A DNA stretch of 41,736 nucleotides, taken from IMG/VR virus record IMGVR_UViG_3300045988_047176, one strand, 5' to 3'. Of this stretch, positions 8,371-37,757 are shown piece by piece. Position 1 is the first letter of the stretch; every line of letters begins with the position of its first letter. A program made the position numbers and the translations under genes. Below the pieces are notes generated by a model. The model was not told where the DNA came from and ran no database searches. It saw only the letters and a list, made by a program, of their open reading frames with translations. This DNA comes from a virus.

Positions 8371-8691
8371 ATGGACATCAATACTATCGGCGTGGCGACT
8401 GTGGCCGCTATCATTGTGATTTGCTATCTGATCGGCATGATCGTGAAGGCCACGGCGCTGGACAACAAATGGATCCCCATTATTTGCGGTGTGTGCGGCG
8501 GCATCATCGGTGCGCTAGCGCTGGCATTCCATATACCGGATTTTCCTGCAAACGACTACGTTACGGCGGTTGCCGTTGGCATTATGTCCGGCCTGACCGC
8601 GACGGGCGTTAATCAGGTGTTTAAGCAGATGTCCCGCGTAAAGGAAGAAAAAGCACCGTCCAAAGCATTACCGTACATATACGGAGAATGA
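8371..8691 (+). CDS. Holin, Hol118/Hol44-like (Phage_holin_5-type)
   Basis: 106 aa with three hydrophobic segments. NKWIPIICGVCGGIIGALA and TATGVNQVFKQ resemble Listeria A118 Hol118 (SKWLPTVSILIGAILGALA ... GTGLFEQF). The C-terminus is charged. Confidence 0.75.
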   Translation: MDINTIGVATVAAIIVICYLIGMIVKATALDNKWIPIICGVCGGIIGALALAFHIPDFPANDYVTAVAVGIMSGLTATGVNQVFKQMSRVKEEKAPSKALPYIYGE

Positions 8692-8728: not shown

Positions 8729-9031
8729 ATGGAACCGTGGGTACAGCAGATCGTCGTACCGCTGGCGGTAGCGGTGCTGACAAGCAGCGGCTTGTGGGCG
8801 CTGGTATCGAAGCGGGCGGACAAGAACAATGCGGAGCGGAAGATGCTGGTGGGCCTGGCGCATGACCGCATCATCCATTTGGGCATGACCTACATCCAGC
8901 GCGGCGAGGTCACGCAGGACGAGTATGAGAACCTCAACGATTACCTGTATGCGCCGTATGAAAAAATGGGCGGCAACGGCAGCGCCAAGCGCGTGATGGA
9001 AGAGGTTCGCCGCCTGCCTATCCGAAAATAA
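8729..9031 (+). CDS. Lysis-cassette membrane protein of unknown role (N-terminal TM with a soluble C-terminal domain)
   Basis: 100 aa. One N-terminal helix (IVVPLAVAVLTSSGLWALV) is followed by ...GLAHDRIIHLGMTYIQRGEVTQDEYENLNDYLYAPYEKMGGNGSAKR. It sits between the two holin genes. Confidence 0.5.
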   Translation: MEPWVQQIVVPLAVAVLTSSGLWALVSKRADKNNAERKMLVGLAHDRIIHLGMTYIQRGEVTQDEYENLNDYLYAPYEKMGGNGSAKRVMEEVRRLPIRK

Positions 9032-9063
9032 CAGACAGGGCAAAAGCCCGGAAAGGAAGAATT

Positions 9064-9285
9064 ATGAAGCTGAACAACAAGGTTTATGACGTTATGAAGT
9101 GGGTGGTCATGATCGTGCTGCCCGCGCTGAGTGCCCTGTATGTGGGTTTGGGCAGCATTTGGGGCTGGCCGTACATCGAGCAGGTGGCCGGAAGCATCTC
9201 CTGCGTGACGGTGTTTTTGGGTGCTCTGCTGGGCATCTCCAGCGCCAACTATAAGAAGTCCACGCTGGACGAGGAGGCTATGTAA
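9064..9285 (+). CDS. Holin, Dp-1-family-like
   Basis: 73 aa with two TM segments. KVYDVMKWVVMIVLPALSALYVGLGSIWGWPY...FLGALLGISS fits the Phage_holin_Dp1 pattern. It lies directly upstream of the endolysin. Confidence 0.7.
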   Translation: MKLNNKVYDVMKWVVMIVLPALSALYVGLGSIWGWPYIEQVAGSISCVTVFLGALLGISSANYKKSTLDEEAM

Positions 9286-9969
9286 ATGGCCGCGCCGAAG
9301 GTCTACCTGTCCCCGGCTATGCACAGGGCAAACCCCTGTGTATATCCGCGGGAGGACGGGAAACAGTGCTATGAGGCGCTGGAGAACAACGAGTACATCG
9401 ACATCCTTGAGCCGATCCTGAACCGCTGCGGCATCGCGACAAAGCGCGGCTATCGGCGTACACCCATGAACGGCGACAACGGCGATGCCATCATGAAGCA
9501 GAACGTGCGGGAGAGCGATGCGTGGGGTGCGGACGTGCATTACGTCAGCCACACCAACGGCAGCGCAGACGGCAAGGGAAACTCCCGCGGTTGCTATCCC
9601 ATGTACTACACCTACTCCAAGAACGGAAAGAAACTGGGAGAGATCATGGTGAAGTACAGGAAGCAGATTTACCCGCGCACGGTGAAGCTGGTGGCCAGTT
9701 CTAAGTGGTATGAGCTTTACAAGCCCAAGGCGGTGAGCTACTACGAGGAGCACGTGTTCCACGACAACATGGAGGATGCCACATGGTTTCACACCCACAT
9801 GAAGGAGATCGCCGAGAGCGCGGCCAAGGGGCTGTGCGAGTGGTTCGGTGTTCCGTATGTGGAGGAGACGAAGCCTGCGGAGCCGGTGGAGCCCATGACC
9901 CCCGGCGAGCTGCTGGTAAAGATCATGAACAGCACAGGAACGTGCGGCACGTGGGAGATCGTGAAGTAA
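9286..9969 (+). CDS. Endolysin, N-acetylmuramoyl-L-alanine amidase (Amidase_3-like)
   Basis: 227 aa. It shows the LSPAMH...E...N...ADVHYVSHTNG...YELY...YYEEHVFHDN..DA layout of His/Glu zinc ligands typical of Amidase_3/CwlA-type phage lysins. The start abuts the holin stop. I see no recognisable wall-binding domain. Confidence 0.75.
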   Translation: MAAPKVYLSPAMHRANPCVYPREDGKQCYEALENNEYIDILEPILNRCGIATKRGYRRTPMNGDNGDAIMKQNVRESDAWGADVHYVSHTNGSADGKGNSRGCYPMYYTYSKNGKKLGEIMVKYRKQIYPRTVKLVASSKWYELYKPKAVSYYEEHVFHDNMEDATWFHTHMKEIAESAAKGLCEWFGVPYVEETKPAEPVEPMTPGELLVKIMNSTGTCGTWEIVK

Positions 9970-10056: not shown

Positions 10057-10299
10057 ATGGACAGATACCACAAGCAGATACGGCGCAGATTGCAGAGCAT
10101 GGCACCAAAGCGGGCTATTGCGTATGTTATGAGCGCCCAGCTGCCGCCTGACGAAGCGGTGTGCGTTATTGAATGTGACGTGAAGCGGAAAAGCTATTGT
10201 GAAACGGCGTTACTGCTGAATGTTTCCCCGGAAACGGTAAAGCGGTGCCGCAGGAGAGCGTATCAGAAATTTGCAGACGAAGAAAGAAGCCACACCTGA
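10057..10299 (+). CDS. Small DNA-binding protein similar to sigma-70 region 4 or a LuxR-type HTH
   Basis: 80 aa. ...KSYCETALLLNVSPETVKRCRRRAYQKF matches the region-4 HTH pattern. A terminator follows. Confidence 0.5.
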   Translation: MDRYHKQIRRRLQSMAPKRAIAYVMSAQLPPDEAVCVIECDVKRKSYCETALLLNVSPETVKRCRRRAYQKFADEERSHT

Positions 10300-10428: not shown

Positions 10429-10465
10429 ATAATTCGCAAATTAACGGCCTTTTTCTGACCTTTAA

Positions 10466-10491
10466 CTGCCCCTTTGCGGGGGCAGTTTTTT
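10466..10491 (+). terminator. Rho-independent terminator or attenuator, 9 nt upstream of the cargo operon
   Basis: CTGCCCC / GGGGCAG forms a 7-bp stem with a 6-nt loop, followed by TTTTTTG. Confidence 0.75.
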
Positions 10492-10500
10492 GTTACGCTT

Positions 10501-10656
10501 ATGGCAAGTAACGGAGGTGTTTGCATAATCGAAAAGTTGGTGTCGTTGGGATTTACCCAGCAGATGGCGGAGGACATCATTTGGGCGTATCAGGACGATC
10601 TTCCGGGGCTGAAAGCCTATGTGCGTGTGATAGAAATAGTGGCGGCGCATGTATAG
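10501..10656 (+). CDS. Hypothetical small protein (51 aa)
   Basis: This is the first in-frame ATG of ORF 10474..10656. The stop overlaps the next start. The RBS is weak or absent, so both the start and the reality of the gene are uncertain. Confidence 0.35.
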   Translation: MASNGGVCIIEKLVSLGFTQQMAEDIIWAYQDDLPGLKAYVRVIEIVAAHV

Positions 10657-11034: not shown

Positions 11035-11475
11035 ATGGCATTTAACCCGTATTTCAACCCTTATTACCCGCAGCCAATGCAGGATAACCTTGCCCAGCTT
11101 CGGCAGCAGCAAATGCAGACCATGCCGCCGCAGATACCGCAAATTCCACCCATGCAGAACCCGGTGGCGCAGGGCGGCGTACAGTGGGTAGCTGGTAAGC
11201 CGGAGGCGGAGAATTGGTTGATCGCGCCAAACTCTGCTATTGCGCTGTGGGATAGCACGGCTCCTGTGGTGTACCTAAAGCAGGCCGACGCAAGCGGCAA
11301 GCCGACGCTCAAGACGTATGACCTTGTAGAACGCCTTGCAAGCGCTCCTGACGCGCAGAAAGCCACCGCCCCTGAATATGTGACCCGTAAGGAGTTCGAC
11401 GCGCTGGCGGCGCTTGTGGGCGAAATGAAGGGCAAGAAGAAGCGCAAGGTGGAGGAGGACGAGGACGATGAGTAA
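11035..11475 (+). CDS. Cargo-cassette protein 1: P/Q-rich N-terminus, small beta core, Lys/acidic tail
   Basis: 146 aa with a GTGAGG RBS. It begins MAFNPYFNPYYPQPMQ...QIPQIPPMQNP, continues VQWVAGKPEAENWLIAPNSAIALWDSTAPVVYLKQADASGKPTLKTYDL, and ends KGKKKRKVEEDEDDE. Confidence 0.6.
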   Translation: MAFNPYFNPYYPQPMQDNLAQLRQQQMQTMPPQIPQIPPMQNPVAQGGVQWVAGKPEAENWLIAPNSAIALWDSTAPVVYLKQADASGKPTLKTYDLVERLASAPDAQKATAPEYVTRKEFDALAALVGEMKGKKKRKVEEDEDDE

Positions 11476-11668
11476 TCCCTTTTTCGGTGCGCTCGGCGGA
11501 GGGAACGGCTTCATGCAGATGCTGCAACAGTTCCAGCAATTCAAGGCAAATTTTCATGGCGACCCCAAAGCCGAGGTCGAAAAGCTTTTGCAGAGCGGTA
11601 AGCTGAACCAGCAGCAGCTCAACCAGCTACAGCAGATGGCGAAGCAGTTTCAAAGCCTGATGCAGTAA
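11468..11668 (+). CDS. Cargo-cassette protein 2: Gln-rich helical 66-aa protein
   Basis: It overlaps the upstream gene by 8 nt. The sequence is GALGGGNGFMQMLQQFQQFKANF...LNQQQLNQLQQMAKQFQSLMQ. Confidence 0.55.
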   Translation: MSNPFFGALGGGNGFMQMLQQFQQFKANFHGDPKAEVEKLLQSGKLNQQQLNQLQQMAKQFQSLMQ

Positions 11669-11734
11669 TCATCAACATAAATCAACATCGTGGCCACGAT
11701 TTGATGAATAAAAATTTTTCAAAGGAGTGATACT

Positions 11735-12460
11735 ATGTCTCTTTCTGACGGCGGCGTTCAGGCCACTATGCCTGTTGCGCCAACCGGCATGATGAACAGC
11801 GGCTTTGGCGGCTTCGGCGGCGATGGCGCGTGGTGGATCATCATTCTTTTCCTGTTTGTTTTCTGCGGCTGGGGCGGCAACGGCTGGGGGAACAACGGCA
11901 ACGGCGGCGTCGTAGACGGCTACGTGCTGACCTCTGATTTTGCCAATGTCGAGCGCAAGATCGACAGCGTAAATCAGGGCCTTTGCGACGGATTTTATCA
12001 GCAGGCGCAGCTTGTCAACGGCACCAACATGGCGATGGCAAACGGCTTTGCACAGGCAGAGCTGTCCCGTAGCAACCAGCAGGCGGCGCTTATGCAGCAG
12101 CTCAACGCCATGCAGATGCAGGCGCAGCAGTGCTGCTGTGACCAGCGGGCTGATACAGCCCAGGTGCGGTACGACATGGCGGCGCAGGCCTGCGACACGC
12201 GCAACACCGTGCAGACGGCGGCCCGGGACATCGTGGAGAACGCGAACGCCAATTCCCGTGCGATTTTGGACTTCCTGACGCAGAGCAAGCTGCAGGATCT
12301 TCAGAGCGCCAATCAGGAGCTGCGCCTTGCCGCTTCTCAGGCTGCGCAGAACAACTACCTGATCTCCCAGCTGCGCCCTTGCCCCACCCCAGCTTACATC
12401 ACTTGTAATCCGTGGGCGGGCAGCGGCTATGGCGGATGCGGAACCGGCTGCGGATGCTGA
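11735..12460 (+). CDS. Cargo-cassette protein 3: membrane-anchored Gly/Trp-rich and Gln-rich coiled-coil protein with Cys clusters
   Basis: 241 aa with an AAAGGAG RBS. It carries one TM segment (AWWIIILFLFVFCGW) flanked by GFGGFGGDG and GGNGWGNNGNGG. A long Q/A/N-rich helical region contains a CCC triplet. The C-terminus is RPCPTPAYITCNPWAGSGYGGCGTGCGC. Confidence 0.65.
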   Translation: MSLSDGGVQATMPVAPTGMMNSGFGGFGGDGAWWIIILFLFVFCGWGGNGWGNNGNGGVVDGYVLTSDFANVERKIDSVNQGLCDGFYQQAQLVNGTNMAMANGFAQAELSRSNQQAALMQQLNAMQMQAQQCCCDQRADTAQVRYDMAAQACDTRNTVQTAARDIVENANANSRAILDFLTQSKLQDLQSANQELRLAASQAAQNNYLISQLRPCPTPAYITCNPWAGSGYGGCGTGCGC

Positions 12461-12600
12461 AAAGTGAATAGCACCAGCTGTTCGGAATTTCCGAACTGTT
12501 CAGCCCCGTGCTGATACTGACACCAACGCGGCGGGGCTATTGCCTCGCCGCTGTATTTTAACATGGTCGATTTCGACCACTTTAGAAAGGACTGATTATT

Positions 12601-13023
12601 TTGGCAGAGTACACAAACGCGAATATTGTGACCGTAGCTGCAGGCCAGAACGTTCCCTTGACCGAAACGGCGGTCAATAGCAAGCCTTGCATCGTGCATC
12701 GTGAGGGTGCCGGCATTGTCACGTTGCGTGGTTTCACCAATCAAAACCGCGCTCTGTTTAGGGTCTCCTATGGCGGCAACATCGCCATTCCAACCGGGGG
12801 CACGGTTGAGGCCATCACGGCGGCGCTTGCCATCAACGGAGAGCCGCTGACCAGCGCAACGGCGACTGTCACGCCTGCGGCGGTAGAAAACTACTTTAAC
12901 ATTTATGTTTCCGCGCAGGTCTGTGTCCCGAAAGGCTGCTGCCTGACGGTTGCAATGGAAAACACCAGCACTCAGGCCGTCAACTTCGCCAACTCGAACC
13001 TGACGGTTGAGAGAATCGCGTGA
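12601..13023 (+). CDS. Cargo-cassette protein 4: all-beta protein resembling the C1q/TNF-like C-terminal domain of BclA
   Basis: 140 aa, TTG start with an AGAAAGG RBS. It has alternating hydrophobic beta-strand patterning and the segments ...FRVSYGGNIAIPTGGTVEAITAALAINGEPL... and ...NSNLTVERIA. The last segment echoes the end of the BclA C-terminal domain (...SASIIIEKVA). This is recognition by eye only. Confidence 0.45.
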   Translation: MAEYTNANIVTVAAGQNVPLTETAVNSKPCIVHREGAGIVTLRGFTNQNRALFRVSYGGNIAIPTGGTVEAITAALAINGEPLTSATATVTPAAVENYFNIYVSAQVCVPKGCCLTVAMENTSTQAVNFANSNLTVERIA

Positions 13024-13036
13024 AAGGAGAATTAAA

Positions 13037-13453
13037 ATGAGTATGAAAGCAATGTACGATTTGCGTGATATGCTCTGCAAGGAGCTTGACGAGATCGCCC
13101 ACAAAGGAGAGCTGGGCGCTGGGGATCTGGACATCGCGCATAAGCTGGTAAGCACCATCAAGAACATCGACAAGATCGATCTGATGGAAGATGAAGGGTA
13201 CAGCCGTGACGGCGATTATTCCCAGCGGCGTTACTCCCGCGACGGCGACTATTCCCAGCGCAGATATTCCCGCGACAGCTACGGCGGCGGCAGCTCCTAC
13301 GCACGGCGCGGCACCCATTATGTGCGCGGCCATTATAGCCGCGACGGTGCAAAAGATGACATGAAGCGCCAGCTGCAAGAGATGCTGGACAATGCGGATG
13401 ATGATACCATCCGCAACGCCATTCAGCGGTGTATGGATGCCGTGGAGGGCTGA
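13037..13453 (+). CDS. Cargo-cassette protein 5: helical protein with tandem YSRDGDYSQRR repeats
   Basis: ATG at 13037 follows an AAAGGAGA RBS. 138 aa. The helical ends (LCKELDEIAHKGELGAGDLDIAHKLVSTIKNIDKI; DDMKRQLQEMLDNADDDTIRNAIQRCMDAVEG) flank a Tyr/Arg/Asp/Gly-rich repeat core. Confidence 0.6.
   Translation: MSMKAMYDLRDMLCKELDEIAHKGELGAGDLDIAHKLVSTIKNIDKIDLMEDEGYSRDGDYSQRRYSRDGDYSQRRYSRDSYGGGSSYARRGTHYVRGHYSRDGAKDDMKRQLQEMLDNADDDTIRNAIQRCMDAVEG
13199..13285 (+). repeat. Tandem 33-bp coding repeat, about 2.6 copies (YSRDGDYSQRR x2 plus YSRDSYG)
   Basis: The units are 13199-13231 and 13232-13264, with a partial unit at 13265-13285. The copies differ at synonymous positions. Confidence 0.85.
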
Positions 13454-13469
13454 GAGGGGGTAGTTCCCC

Positions 13470-13784
13470 TTGATCGACGAAAAGGAACTTAAAGCCTGGA
13501 TAGCCAGACTGGAAACGGAACAGTCAAGCTGGCCGAACTACGAGAAACTGGCCGCGCTGTACATTATACAAAATCAGCACGAAGGGCAGAGAAACCCTGC
13601 GCCGGTGGCTATGTATTCCAGCGCACCGGCTCCTGACGTGGTAGACGGTGACAGTGACTTTATGCAAGCGGTATCATCCCGCGCACCGGAGCAGGCGTGG
13701 GCCATAGTGGACGAGTTGATGGATGCGCTGAAAGTAACCAATGCGCGAATGTATGATAACGTGATGCGAAAGATGCGAGGATAA
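13470..13784 (+). CDS. Cargo-cassette protein 6: acidic 104-aa protein
   Basis: TTG start after a GAGGGGG RBS. This is the last gene before the terminator. There is no recognisable motif. Confidence 0.5.
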   Translation: MIDEKELKAWIARLETEQSSWPNYEKLAALYIIQNQHEGQRNPAPVAMYSSAPAPDVVDGDSDFMQAVSSRAPEQAWAIVDELMDALKVTNARMYDNVMRKMRG

Positions 13785-13787
13785 AGT

Positions 13788-13813
13788 ATCCCCCGCCTGT
13801 TTTGGCGGGGGAT
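13788..13813 (+). terminator. Hairpin terminator closing the cargo operon
   Basis: ATCCCCCGCC / GGCGGGGGAT forms a 10-bp stem with a TGTTTT loop. The downstream T-tract is weak (ATTCTT). Confidence 0.6.
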
Positions 13814-13821
13814 ATTCTTGT

Positions 13822-17062: not shown

Positions 17063-18079
17063 TTATTTTGAGTTATTTTGTCTGTCTATTTCTATAGCTT
17101 CTTCCAATGATTTTGGAATTTTGTATCCAGCATTTTCTACCAAGCAGACCAATTTTTGATACTTAGGGGAGTTTGCATTTTTCATTCTGGAAAAAGCAGA
17201 TGCAGTTTTTGGGAAATCGTTTGGAAATATTGGTTTAAACCAGTAATAAATAATATGGTTCAAGTCTGCTGGGCGCTTCAAAATTTTCGCTTTTTGGCGT
17301 ACTTCCAATAATTTTTTATAATTATAAATTTCTTCTGGCGATCTATCGTCTCTAAACGGCCTTCTACTGTAAAGATAATAATTTCGACACTGAAAAGTAG
17401 GCTCGCTTGTGCCTTCCACAAAAGGAAAAACGCCAAGTCCGCATTGAAAACAAAAATCTTTTGGGAATTTTGGAAATTTAAAATTTAATCCAGACAAGCG
17501 ATATATTCGATTTCTGTATTTGGCGCAAATTTCACAACAAGCCCCCAAATCCCCAACTTCAACTAAATGTGTTTTTAAGTATTCGCAAGACTCAAGGGTT
17601 CTTTTAAATGCTATTTTTCCATAATCGTCTGGATCATCTGTGTATTTTTTTATCCAATTTTCCCATTCTTCTGCTTTTGTAAAACGACCAAGTTCAATAT
17701 TCCAATTTACAATTCGATAATAATCTTTTCTTTGCCAGCTAATAGTTGAATAAAGCATTAACTGGCACGCCTTTCCAAGACAAATCATAGAAAGATCATA
17801 ATTTCCCTCGTTCCACAAAATTCCAGCGTGCATACGCAAGACATAATCCAAGTAACCAGTAACACCTAAATTTTGGGCATTTTTGTTTTCGTGCGTATAA
17901 GTATACTTGGGAACTTCTATTGAATATATAGAATTTCGGTCTGTTAAATCATAGGCAACTCCATCAGAAACAATCGAAGTTGCTTTGTTTATAAGCTCTC
18001 TGGCATCATAATATGATACTCCTGGCTCCGGCAGCATTTTAACTACTTGGCCGTTTTCATAATACACTGTAACGCCCAT
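17063..18079 (-). CDS. Unknown 338-aa protein with a Cys cluster, low GC (candidate prophage-encoded defence or exclusion gene)
   Basis: AAGGTGA RBS. It is the first gene leftward of the immunity switch. By my hand count of sampled lines, GC is roughly one third, against more than half for the structural genes. It contains CCEICAKYRNRIYRLSG...FPKFPKDFCFQCGLGVFPF and no HExxH or HTH motif. Confidence 0.6.
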   Translation of the reverse strand: MGVTVYYENGQVVKMLPEPGVSYYDARELINKATSIVSDGVAYDLTDRNSIYSIEVPKYTYTHENKNAQNLGVTGYLDYVLRMHAGILWNEGNYDLSMICLGKACQLMLYSTISWQRKDYYRIVNWNIELGRFTKAEEWENWIKKYTDDPDDYGKIAFKRTLESCEYLKTHLVEVGDLGACCEICAKYRNRIYRLSGLNFKFPKFPKDFCFQCGLGVFPFVEGTSEPTFQCRNYYLYSRRPFRDDRSPEEIYNYKKLLEVRQKAKILKRPADLNHIIYYWFKPIFPNDFPKTASAFSRMKNANSPKYQKLVCLVENAGYKIPKSLEEAIEIDRQNNSK

Positions 18080-37075: not shown

Positions 37076-37190
37076 CAGTAAAAACCGCTGATGCGGATTT
37101 TATACAAAAATTGGCTATCTGCAAGCCTAAAAGTGCAGGCGGGGCGGTCACGGCAACGACCTAAAAAGCCTATCCCGTAAGGAGTTGAAC

Positions 37191-37757
37191 ATGAAGAAAG
37201 AAGAGCTGTTGAACATCGGCCTGACGGAAGAGCAGGCGGACAAGGTGTTTGCCATGAGCGGCAAAGACATCGAAAAGCACAAGAAAGCCGCAGAGGACGC
37301 AAAGGCGGACAAGGAAGCCCTGGAGCAGCAGGTCGCAGACCGGGATAAGGACATCGCGGAGCTGAAAAAGACCAGTGGTGACGCGGCCAAAATCCAGGAG
37401 AAGCTGGATGAGTTGCAGGGCAAGTACGACAAGGAAACCGAAGCGTACAAAGCACAGCTTGCACAGCGGGATTATCAGACCGCCATTGACAAGGCGATTG
37501 CCGACAGCGGCGTGAAGTTTTCCTCCAAATCTGCGGAAAAGGCTTTCCGAGCGGGTATCGGAGACAGCAAGCTCGAAATGAAGGACGGCGCTTTGGACGG
37601 GTTCGACAAGTACCTGGAAAATGCAAAGTCTGAGGATCCCAGCGCATTTGTAAAGGCTGGCGCTCGTGTTGACACGCAGGGTTCGCTTGAGGGCGGCACT
37701 CGTGAAACAAAGCCCACATCTTTGCTGGGTGCGCTCCACGAAAAATACGACAAGTAA
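37191..37757 (+). CDS. Scaffolding protein (GP20-like)
   Basis: ATG lies 6 nt after AAGGAG. 188 aa, highly charged and helical (LLNIGLTEEQADKVFAMSGKDIEKHKK...). It is directly upstream of the major capsid gene. Confidence 0.7.
   Translation: MKKEELLNIGLTEEQADKVFAMSGKDIEKHKKAAEDAKADKEALEQQVADRDKDIAELKKTSGDAAKIQEKLDELQGKYDKETEAYKAQLAQRDYQTAIDKAIADSGVKFSSKSAEKAFRAGIGDSKLEMKDGALDGFDKYLENAKSEDPSAFVKAGARVDTQGSLEGGTRETKPTSLLGALHEKYDK

Follow-up and report, generated by a model that had tools for sequence, protein, structure and literature searches.

A conserved, P3-centred gene module of gut phages with a possible structural role in lytic growth

The question raised by this locus is what a tightly packed run of genes for low-complexity proteins, lying between the lysis genes and the integrase gene of a temperate phage, does for the phage that carries it. 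The phage is the IMG/VR virus record IMGVR_UViG_3300045988_047176, and the whole stretch that was analysed (the window) is 41,736 nucleotides long. The window is a circularly permuted temperate siphophage genome of about 41.7 kb, in which the tape measure and tail genes are followed by two holin-family genes, an amidase gene, the genes in question (P1 to P6) and a convergent serine integrase gene, and then by the repressor gene, early genes, and the genes for the portal, minor head and major capsid proteins. All six open reading frames (ORFs) listed in an initial annotation, which a model had made from the sequence, were found exactly where it had placed them. P1 to P6 are each preceded by a Shine-Dalgarno-like sequence, and P5 starts at the ATG at 13037. 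We found that these genes belong to a larger conserved unit. The explanation that we consider most likely, with a probability of roughly one in three, is that this unit builds a structural assembly during lytic growth, which leaves the cell with or on the virions.

A conserved, mobile module of eight genes

It is well supported that P1 to P6 are part of a real, conserved and mobile accessory module, specific to phages, that comprises eight genes. The six-gene unit described initially is extended upstream by P0 (10649-11032) and by a 51-amino-acid (aa) gene, Pm1 (10501-10656), and usually also by a small helix-turn-helix (HTH) gene (10057-10299). Profile hidden Markov models of divergent homologs were used to search 88 diverse loci, which came from phage records and, for bacteria, from a single genome of each species. 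Across these 88 divergent loci the order P0-P1-P2-P3-P4-P5(-P6) was always co-directional. P0 to P5 were present in 25 loci, P0 to P6 in 21, and a minimal set of P1, P3 and P4 in 14; in the minimal loci the next gene encodes a protein of P5-like composition, and the one after that a small protein with an HExxH motif. P0 adjoins P1 in most loci, and P6 was found in roughly a third of them. Purifying selection acts on all eight genes; the median ratios of nonsynonymous to synonymous substitution rates (dN/dS) are 0.08 to 0.32. The conserved co-occurrence of the families in phages of gut Clostridia, which the initial annotation had suggested, was borne out by these loci: more than 80 divergent loci from Clostridia of the gut and the rumen keep the gene order.

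The initial annotation could match none of the six proteins to a virion, lysis, replication, regulatory or known defence family. For named families this stands: we detected no relation of P1 to P6 to any of these groups, searches of Pfam, NCBIfam, PADLOC and the sequences in the Protein Data Bank (PDB) with every member of the module gave no informative match, and a PADLOC search with P0 to P6 gave none at E-values up to 1. It does not stand for families in general, since five of the six proteins match PHROG families without known function. Literature searches found no publications on the module families, and the module has none of the defining features of known systems beyond general architecture. 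The families are catalogued in PHROGs without a function.

The module is one of the larger uncharacterised gene blocks in gut phages. Should P3 act on membranes, it would point to a step of entry or exit that tailed viruses share even when their hosts differ greatly. A structural role would make the module a novel type of appendage or matrix of the virion, and a role in excluding other phages would make it a conflict system that is both new and widespread. Its cultured carriers are Butyrivibrio phage Ceridwen, Clostridium perfringens phage CPD1 and its relatives, Bacteroides phage C3_41T2LP and a prophage of Vescimonas fastidiosa MM35.

The genes are not all tied to each other to the same degree. 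P0, P1, P5 and P6 co-vary across loci (r = 0.64-0.81), the correlations of P3 with everything else are 0.20-0.48, and that between P3 and P4 is 0.20. In loci whose P0 and P6 are at least 95% identical to those of the window, P2 is 71%, P3 75% and P4 86% identical. The idea of a co-adapted P2-P3-P4 trio was dropped, as P3 and P4 do not co-vary. Genes have also entered the module: we found an endonuclease gene inside it in Dulem virus 33, an HNH endonuclease gene in CPD1 and a cytosine methyltransferase-like gene in a Lachnospiraceae prophage, and the P3/P4 junction takes inserted genes in other phages. Such looseness raises the possibility of a hotspot of unrelated accessory genes, whose order would reflect linkage only; P0 occurs alone in many unrelated phages, the minimal P1-P3-P4 set exists, P3 and P4 recombine separately, both from each other and from the backbone, and several internal junctions accept insertions. 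We consider a hotspot very improbable, because the same order is kept from Oscillospiraceae to Selenomonadaceae at three different genome positions, the genes overlap or abut, four of them co-vary as described, and a parallel P3-centred five-gene set is conserved in 63 to 79 of 82 Bacteroidota-phage loci (see below).

The initial annotation placed the genes in a cargo slot and raised the question of whether they always sit beside lysis or integrase genes. They do not; the position varies between phages. In the window, in Dulem virus 33 and in the V. fastidiosa prophage the module lies 3' of the holin and endolysin genes, at the prophage end. It follows the integrase gene in Dulem virus 39. In two further cases, Dulem virus 35 and a prophage in a complete Lachnospiraceae chromosome, the module has the gene for an SPP1-gp7-like minor head protein on one side and those for the scaffold and the major capsid protein on the other, and a head-module position of this kind, far from the lysis genes, was found in at least 10 loci. 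Butyrivibrio phage Ceridwen has all of P0 to P6 and no integrase gene, and its growth is lytic only as observed (PMC7372960). The constant co-direction of the module with neighbouring late genes, its position in some head operons, its presence in Ceridwen and the presence of P3 in crAss-like phages together argue for a function in the lytic cycle and not in the lysogen.

These observations bear on the explanation proposed first, lysogenic conversion, in which a secreted multi-protein assembly would decorate the envelope or the spore surface of the lysogen. The slot between the lysis genes and the integrase gene or prophage end, in the window and the V. fastidiosa prophage, would suit such a role, as would the BclA/C1q-like fold predicted for P4, and the Cys-, Tyr- and Gln-rich composition of the proteins recalls that of spore-coat proteins. 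The shifting position, the apparently virulent carriers and the restriction of membrane segments to P3 argue against it. A phage that lacks an integrase gene, and whose observed growth was lytic only, carries the module, other phages carry it inside head operons, and P3 occurs in Bacteroides phages and archaeal viruses, whose hosts do not sporulate; the spore-coat analogy was rejected on this host range. On reading the sequences we saw no hydrophobic N-terminal segment of the secretion type in P1, P2, P4, P5 or P6 (a signal-peptide predictor was not run). No module protein has collagen-like GXX repeats, and there was no Pfam match to exosporium or Ena proteins. We regard it as well supported that the module does not decorate spores or the cell surface, and lysogenic conversion as highly improbable.

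As hosts, the genome records of the carriers name mostly Oscillospiraceae, Lachnospiraceae and Acutalibacteraceae; Bacilli and Selenomonadaceae also occur. Among cultured carriers, the prophage on the 861-kb replicon of V. fastidiosa MM35 is the closest, with a P3 that is 89% identical to that of the window; given this identity, the host of the window is probably a Vescimonas-like member of the Oscillospiraceae. In MM35, P1 to P6 lie at the extreme end of the prophage (NZ_AP023416.1, 251813-254547), beside lactate permease and lactate dehydrogenase (LDH) genes.

P3, the core protein

P3 (phrog_16490; 11735-12460, + strand) begins with an acidic tail of about 31 aa that contains no Lys or Arg. 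This is followed by a single hydrophobic segment flanked by Gly and Trp (residues ~32-46), a helical domain rich in Q, N and A, and a tail rich in Cys and Gly. The hydrophobic anchor segment, the CCC triplet and the GCGTGCGC tail that had been noticed initially are all present. Among 29 divergent members, CCC is invariant, the motifs WGGNGxG (after the hydrophobic segment), AASQxAQ and PxPxPAY are nearly invariant, and the Cys/Gly-rich tail is usual. All of the 73 homologs analysed for it (73/73) have a single hydrophobic segment near the N-terminus, and P3 is the only one of P0 to P6 with a membrane segment. An assignment of topology from charge bias was dropped, as usable bias was absent.

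An exhaustive search for P3 (E-values up to 1e-3) gave 1,660 clusters at 50% identity, the best 150 of which are all stand-alone proteins of 80-333 aa without domain fusions. Full-length homologs occur in crAss-like phages, in the cultured Bacteroides uniformis phage C3_41T2LP, in C. perfringens phages and in viruses of Methanomassiliicoccales. C. perfringens phages such as CPD1 also carry P1, P2-like and P6-like genes in the same order. Because P3 is found in viruses of Firmicutes, of Bacteroidota and of wall-less archaea, no one type of cell envelope can be essential to its core function, a conclusion that we regard as well supported by the breadth of the family. Near P3 in one Methanomassiliicoccales virus there is a gene annotated as a reverse transcriptase (L171, 4152-5186).

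In Bacteroidota phages, P3 heads a set of its own. Across 82 loci it is accompanied by a beta-rich protein of ~149 aa (68 loci), a beta-plus-coiled-coil protein of ~182 aa (79 loci), an HNH endonuclease (41 loci), a Y/R/G/E/D-rich protein of ~81 aa (63 loci) and a small HExxH protein (78 loci). P3 alone is homologous between the Firmicutes and Bacteroidota-phage sets (hhalign probability 99.7%). All other comparisons gave probabilities below 1%, so that homology of P1, P2, P4 and P5 to the Bacteroidota-phage partners was rejected and the parallel between the two sets is one of size and composition only. A 429-aa protein with a reverse transcriptase-like FADD motif, seen by reading, is encoded five genes 5' of P3 in Bacteroidota-phage loci (L239-L318).

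When the P3 profile was compared with the PDB, the matches were almost only to influenza HA2, with P3 47-128 aligned to HA2 6-91 at E-values of 0.08-3 (best 0.083). The alignment pairs the hydrophobic peptide of P3 and the helix that follows it with the fusion peptide and helix A. Since these E-values are not significant, we take the match as a resemblance of architecture and not as homology. P3 shares with HA2, a class I fusion subunit, a Gly-/aromatic-rich hydrophobic peptide followed by a long helical region; it lacks the C-terminal membrane anchor and the receptor-binding subunit, and HA2 lacks the CCC motif and the Cys-rich tail. Other annotators have labelled crAss-like homologs of P3 'spike protein/glycoprotein' or 'outer capsid protein/viral fiber'; trimeric viral fibres such as reovirus sigma-1 are, with HA2, among the closest known systems. 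Tailed viruses as a class have no envelope. We put forward, as a tentative and fairly unlikely proposal, that the P3-centred module is an ancient and hitherto unrecognised membrane-active spike of bacterial and archaeal tailed viruses, HA2-like, cysteine-knotted, matured by a small peptidase of its own and equipped with lineage-specific partners. Such a spike would work at the cytoplasmic membrane, during entry or exit, as a fusion-protein-like device of non-enveloped tailed viruses.

The architecture of P3 also resembles that of phage lysis membrane proteins. T4 holin T and i-spanins such as Rz have a short N-terminal tail, one hydrophobic segment and a C-terminal domain, and P3 has these too, with a C-terminal domain of about 200 aa that contains conserved Cys. 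P3 could accordingly be a lysis or egress accessory that sits late in the cytoplasmic membrane and helps to time or complete its disruption, in the manner of class III holins, antiholins or spanins, with the other module proteins regulating or assembling it; an unconventional egress or lysis accessory was also the second possibility offered by the initial annotation. Like lysis membrane proteins, P3 is often encoded beside holin and endolysin genes; the module follows these genes in the window, Ceridwen, Dulem virus 33, the V. fastidiosa prophage and many Clostridia loci, and in the crAss-like phage cr116_1 the lysis genes lie 1-2 kb 5' of P3. Furthermore, the cytoplasmic membrane is the single target common to all hosts, including the wall-less archaea. 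We nevertheless find a lysis role somewhat unlikely. The phage already has two holin-family genes (8371-8691 and 9064-9285, of the Hol44 and Dp-1 types) 5' of one amidase gene, the same lysis cassette is found in phages that lack the module, and the head-module loci described above place P3 at a distance from the lysis genes. P3 has no sequence relation to T4 holin T or Rz; the 29 members gave no Pfam match at all, holin and spanin families included, and the only PHROG match was the function-less phrog_16490. Of the features of spanins, P3 has the N-terminal hydrophobic segment and the helical Cys-containing domain, but its soluble part is Q/N/A-rich and poor in charge, unlike the charged coiled coils of spanins. 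There is no outer-membrane lipoprotein partner: on reading the sequences we saw no lipobox-bearing N-terminus in P1, P2, P4 to P6 or the small ORFs (a dedicated predictor was not run). Most of the hosts have a single membrane, and lysis systems are not known to include a jelly-roll protein or low-complexity partners.

We compared phages that share the endolysin of the window and have at least 5 kb of sequence 3' of it. About 13 of these have the arrangement HTH-P0...P6-integrase-repressor, and about 27 are without the module. The module-less phages are otherwise different because the lysis cassette is itself mosaic: the block 8729-9969 is found again, 72-95% identical, in phages that are otherwise unrelated, which marks the cassette as a mosaic unit of its own.

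P3 is exchanged independently of the rest of the module. It is only 75% identical where P0, P1, P5 and P6 are 97-99% identical, and its dN/dS, 0.32, is the highest. The variable parts are the N-terminal/hydrophobic region and the C-terminal third, with residues 61-160 conserved. Homing endonuclease genes of the HNH/HmuI type adjoin P3 in at least four independent lineages (L002, 6410-6961, - strand; L168, 4984-5634; L170, 5270-5890; and the 41 Bacteroidota-phage loci counted above, which fall within L239-L318). Gene conversion driven by these neighbours may account for the independent exchange of P3 alleles; selection for diversity could also be the cause. The cytosine-5 DNA methyltransferase-like gene of the Lachnospiraceae prophage, recognised by reading the sequence, lies between P3 and P4 (L119, 7825-8940). 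In the fecal phage contig MT837225.1 (L087), P3 is split into two ORFs and P4 has an in-frame stop (1815-2259, 2372-2791), so that its module is either a decaying copy or an assembly error.

Exchange of P3 alleles might instead be a sign of conflict between phages. P3 in the membrane of the infected cell or lysogen could block entry of other genomes (superinfection exclusion) or be the membrane effector of a new defence system, with the remaining proteins as sensors or regulators. The module does behave as accessory cargo, in its variable position, its presence or absence, its own HTH gene, its flanking terminators and its place at prophage ends, and other accessory genes (the methyltransferase and homing endonucleases) insert in and around it. 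We judge this explanation unlikely. Nucleases and NTPases, which are common in known defence systems, are missing from the module, and PADLOC found no match, as noted above. Known exclusion systems are single small membrane proteins or lipoproteins, unlike a set of eight mostly low-complexity proteins of structural type. The module is oriented with the late genes and sometimes lies inside a head operon, and the mosaicism of P3 can be explained by gene conversion via homing endonucleases.

Partner proteins and the proposed assembly

P0 (phrog_3754, + strand) is a putative papain-like (Cys-His-Asp) peptidase. Its AlphaFold2 (AF2) model has a pLDDT of 91. His97 is invariant, Cys17 and Asp108 are nearly so, and Cys72 and Cys75 of a CPxC motif are invariant. 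In the model, Cys17 is at the start of a helix (residues 16-26), His97 at the start of a strand (97-102) and Asp108 in the next strand (105-108), positions relative to secondary structure that fit a papain-like fold. Foldseek gave non-significant matches to a C39 double-glycine peptidase (TM 0.50, E about 0.7) and to Josephin (TM 0.44), with Josephin-2, TssM and Tae4 among the top matches and a best E-value of 0.06 or worse; a profile search against the PDB gave nothing informative. Members of the family are also found alone in phages of Bacillus and Pseudomonas and in Lak phages, some of them with a peptidase annotation. The likeness to the C39 domain, which processes double-glycine bacteriocins, lies in the layout of Cys, His and Asp and in the setting, as there are conserved Gly-Gly motifs near the N-termini of P2 and P3. 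The differences are that the module has no ABC transporter gene, that P0 adds the invariant CPxC, and that the P0 family is common in phages without the rest of the module. Two other roles were dropped: a transglutaminase acting on the Gln-rich proteins, for which no supporting evidence was found, and a thiol-disulfide oxidoreductase using CPxC, for which there was only a faint glutaredoxin match (E = 0.46).

In lineages without the papain-like P0, small stand-alone HExxH proteins of 107-154 aa recur near P3 (L123, 11512-11835; L119, 14741-15097; L169, 3886-4233 and 6466-6861; L170, 8770-9234), and one of them is annotated as 'PolyVal metallopeptidase'. Both lineages have a gene for a small putative peptidase near P3: in Firmicutes phages it is the papain-like P0, and in Bacteroidota phages and some Firmicutes loci an HExxH protein, a pattern that suggests non-orthologous replacement of a peptidase function. 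The published work on polyvalent proteins offers loose context only, with small peptidases near late genes.

P4 (phrog_20016; 12601-13023, + strand; 140 aa) is the most conserved member of the module, with 6,174 clusters at 90% identity. It has conserved HRxGSG, GNIAxPxGGTV and GCC motifs, and also keeps one Cys just N-terminal to HRxG. The AF2 model is all-beta (pLDDT 67, pTM 0.65), and nearly all of its top Foldseek matches in the PDB are TNF ligands or C1q domains (the best being 4-1BBL, GITRL, cerebellins and C1QTNF5), at weak scores (E at best 2e-3, TM 0.40-0.47). In a viral structure library it matched C1q-domain, collagen-like and BclA-annotated proteins; these matches are mostly to parts of proteins of 180-840 aa, several of which are named collagen-like, baseplate, straight-fibre or capsid. 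P4 had no Pfam match to C1q or TNF at E-values up to 1. The C1q/BclA-type jelly roll suggested initially thus agrees with the look of the model, and with modest confidence we assign P4 a predicted TNF/C1q-like jelly roll. What P4 shares with C1q/TNF and BclA-type proteins is the all-beta sandwich of the model. Unlike BclA and C1q, it stands alone without a collagen stalk and has the GCC motif, and it is far more conserved than is usual for receptor-binding tips.

There is also a likeness to Bacillus Ena fibres and the exosporium, which are built of small beta-sandwich subunits with conserved Cys and include a Cys-rich partner, a C1q-like component and proteins of very low charge. The module differs in that its carriers are phages of non-sporulating hosts, Bacteroides and archaea among them. 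P4 did not match the DUF3992 or exosporium models of Pfam, and DUF3992 did not match the Cys-rich beta proteins at the same position in CPD1, cr116_1 and C3_41T2LP either.

The sequence features listed initially for the remaining proteins could all be read in the translations. P1 (phrog_21718; 11035-11475, + strand) has a Y/P/Q-rich N-terminus, a conserved small domain (WVxGE..A..Y.V.PN..V.L.D...Y.K..D..G.P), a helix and a basic-acidic tail; the Pro/Gln-rich N-terminus and the KKKRKVEEDEDDE tail are those of the initial annotation. Its homolog in CPD1 was found with hmmsearch (E=8e-20) and hhalign (98%). P2 (phrog_22984; 11468-11668, + strand; 66 aa) is helical and Gln-rich as described (Q+N = 30%), with a conserved N-terminal NP[FL]FxALGGG. 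P5 (phrog_28802; 13037-13453, + strand) is helical, with a central Y/S/R/G/D low-complexity repeat, in which the YSRDGDYSQRR repeats are present, and a highly charged, scaffold-like composition. P6 (13470-13784, + strand) is helical and net-acidic, with a conserved YGDSDFLxAV...DELMDTLxVxNxRxYxxVMRK, and has a homolog in CPD1 (E=7.8e-8). Each of these four proteins has a well-conserved core, and no remote homology was detected for them, including in searches of the PDB with the P1 and P6 profiles and in a Pfam scan of all members of the P6 alignment.

In composition, P4, P3 and P2 stand out: no other protein of the phage has so few charged residues (10.7-12.1% D/E/K/R) or so much N/Q/S/T/G/A (51-54%), and their closest counterparts are the receptor-binding, tail-tip and capsid proteins. 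Charged residues make up 37% of P5, compared with 38.9% for the product of the presumed scaffold gene (37185-37757). This would fit P2 to P4 as structural proteins of extracellular type and P5 as an assembly helper, although composition is soft evidence.

The gene content, conservation, mobility and phylogenetic breadth of the module, and the folds and composition of its proteins, are the observations from which we infer joint assembly, association with virions, proteolytic processing and action on membranes. Composition, the P4 fold, the labels that other annotators gave to P3 homologs and the Cys motifs point to a structural product of extracellular type, and the conserved Cys (CCC in P3; GCC and one more Cys in P4) would suit covalent cross-linking of an assembly. 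In the assembly that we propose, P3 would be an oligomeric, cysteine-knotted helical stalk, whose Gly/Trp-flanked hydrophobic peptide would either anchor it in a membrane or particle or insert into a target membrane. P4 would be a very conserved jelly-roll subunit and P2 a small structural partner, with P5 and P6 as scaffold- or chaperone-like helpers. P0 would be the processing peptidase, which might cut P3 at the conserved Gly-Gly that directly precedes its hydrophobic segment, and the upstream HTH protein would regulate the module.

Several points weigh against such an assembly. The literature yielded no virion proteomics, expression or functional work on any carrier. A hydrophobic segment like that of P3 would normally direct a protein to the cytoplasmic membrane, which would be unusual for a virion protein of a tailed phage. 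About 27 phages have the same lysis cassette and do without the module, though they appear to be otherwise unrelated. The module of the window is separate from the structural operon, has terminators on both sides and adjoins the integrase gene, a setting typical of accessory cargo. The correlation between P3 and P4 (r = 0.20) leaves a specific contact between them unsupported, and P4 is too conserved for a receptor-binding tip. The structural matches are weak, with E-values at best 2e-3 for P4, 0.06 for P0 and 0.08 for P3 and HA2, and, as said, composition is soft evidence. More speculative still is a variant of the membrane-active spike proposed above, in which a cross-linkable matrix of the jelly-roll, coiled-coil and protease proteins would be released together with the virions and protect them in the gut. 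The probability that remains we leave to something not yet imagined.

Regulatory features and neighbouring genes

The small protein encoded upstream of the module (10057-10299, + strand; 80 aa) matches the Pfam model Sigma70_r4_2 (E=1.4e-9, 37.8 bits compared with a cut-off of 25.7). It has region 4 only; there was no match to sigma-70 region 2, which is responsible for core binding and -10 recognition. Because it is only 80 aa long and has region 4 alone, it is better named a small HTH regulator. Similar small HTH genes lie directly 5' of the module in at least 16 divergent loci, and the gene accompanies the module in nearly all of the module carriers that share the endolysin of the phage. 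Pm1 (+ strand) was found with jackhmmer in 76 loci, always abutting or overlapping the start of P0, and has a median dN/dS of 0.17. Its start codon is uncertain because a Shine-Dalgarno-like sequence is missing.

The two hairpins that the initial annotation saw on either side of the genes are real. Both are much more stable than shuffled sequence, with z-scores calculated from their folding energies relative to such sequence. The upstream hairpin (10464-10493, + strand, with the stem-loop at 10464-10487) resembles an intrinsic terminator, with a 10-bp stem followed by the U-tract TTTTTTG (-19.5 kcal/mol, z = -3.7). The downstream one (13787-13814) lies between the module and the convergent serine integrase gene (-26.9 kcal/mol, z = -7.0). 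A third, GC-rich hairpin, absent from the initial annotation, lies between P3 and P4 (12528-12551, + strand; -23.1 kcal/mol, z = -5.3) and is possibly an internal attenuator or terminator. In the same intergenic region, 5' of this hairpin, there is a short inverted repeat at 12480-12496 (GTTCGGAA t TTCCGAAC), which could be an operator or a second stem. A conserved promoter upstream of the module was sought and the search dropped, as the region is too mosaic.

Adjoining the lysogeny genes of the window is an ORF of 338 aa (17063-18079, - strand). It had no Pfam match, and it lies in a sharply bounded island of low GC content, 33% compared with ~53% for the phage. This ORF is probably an accessory gene that was acquired separately.

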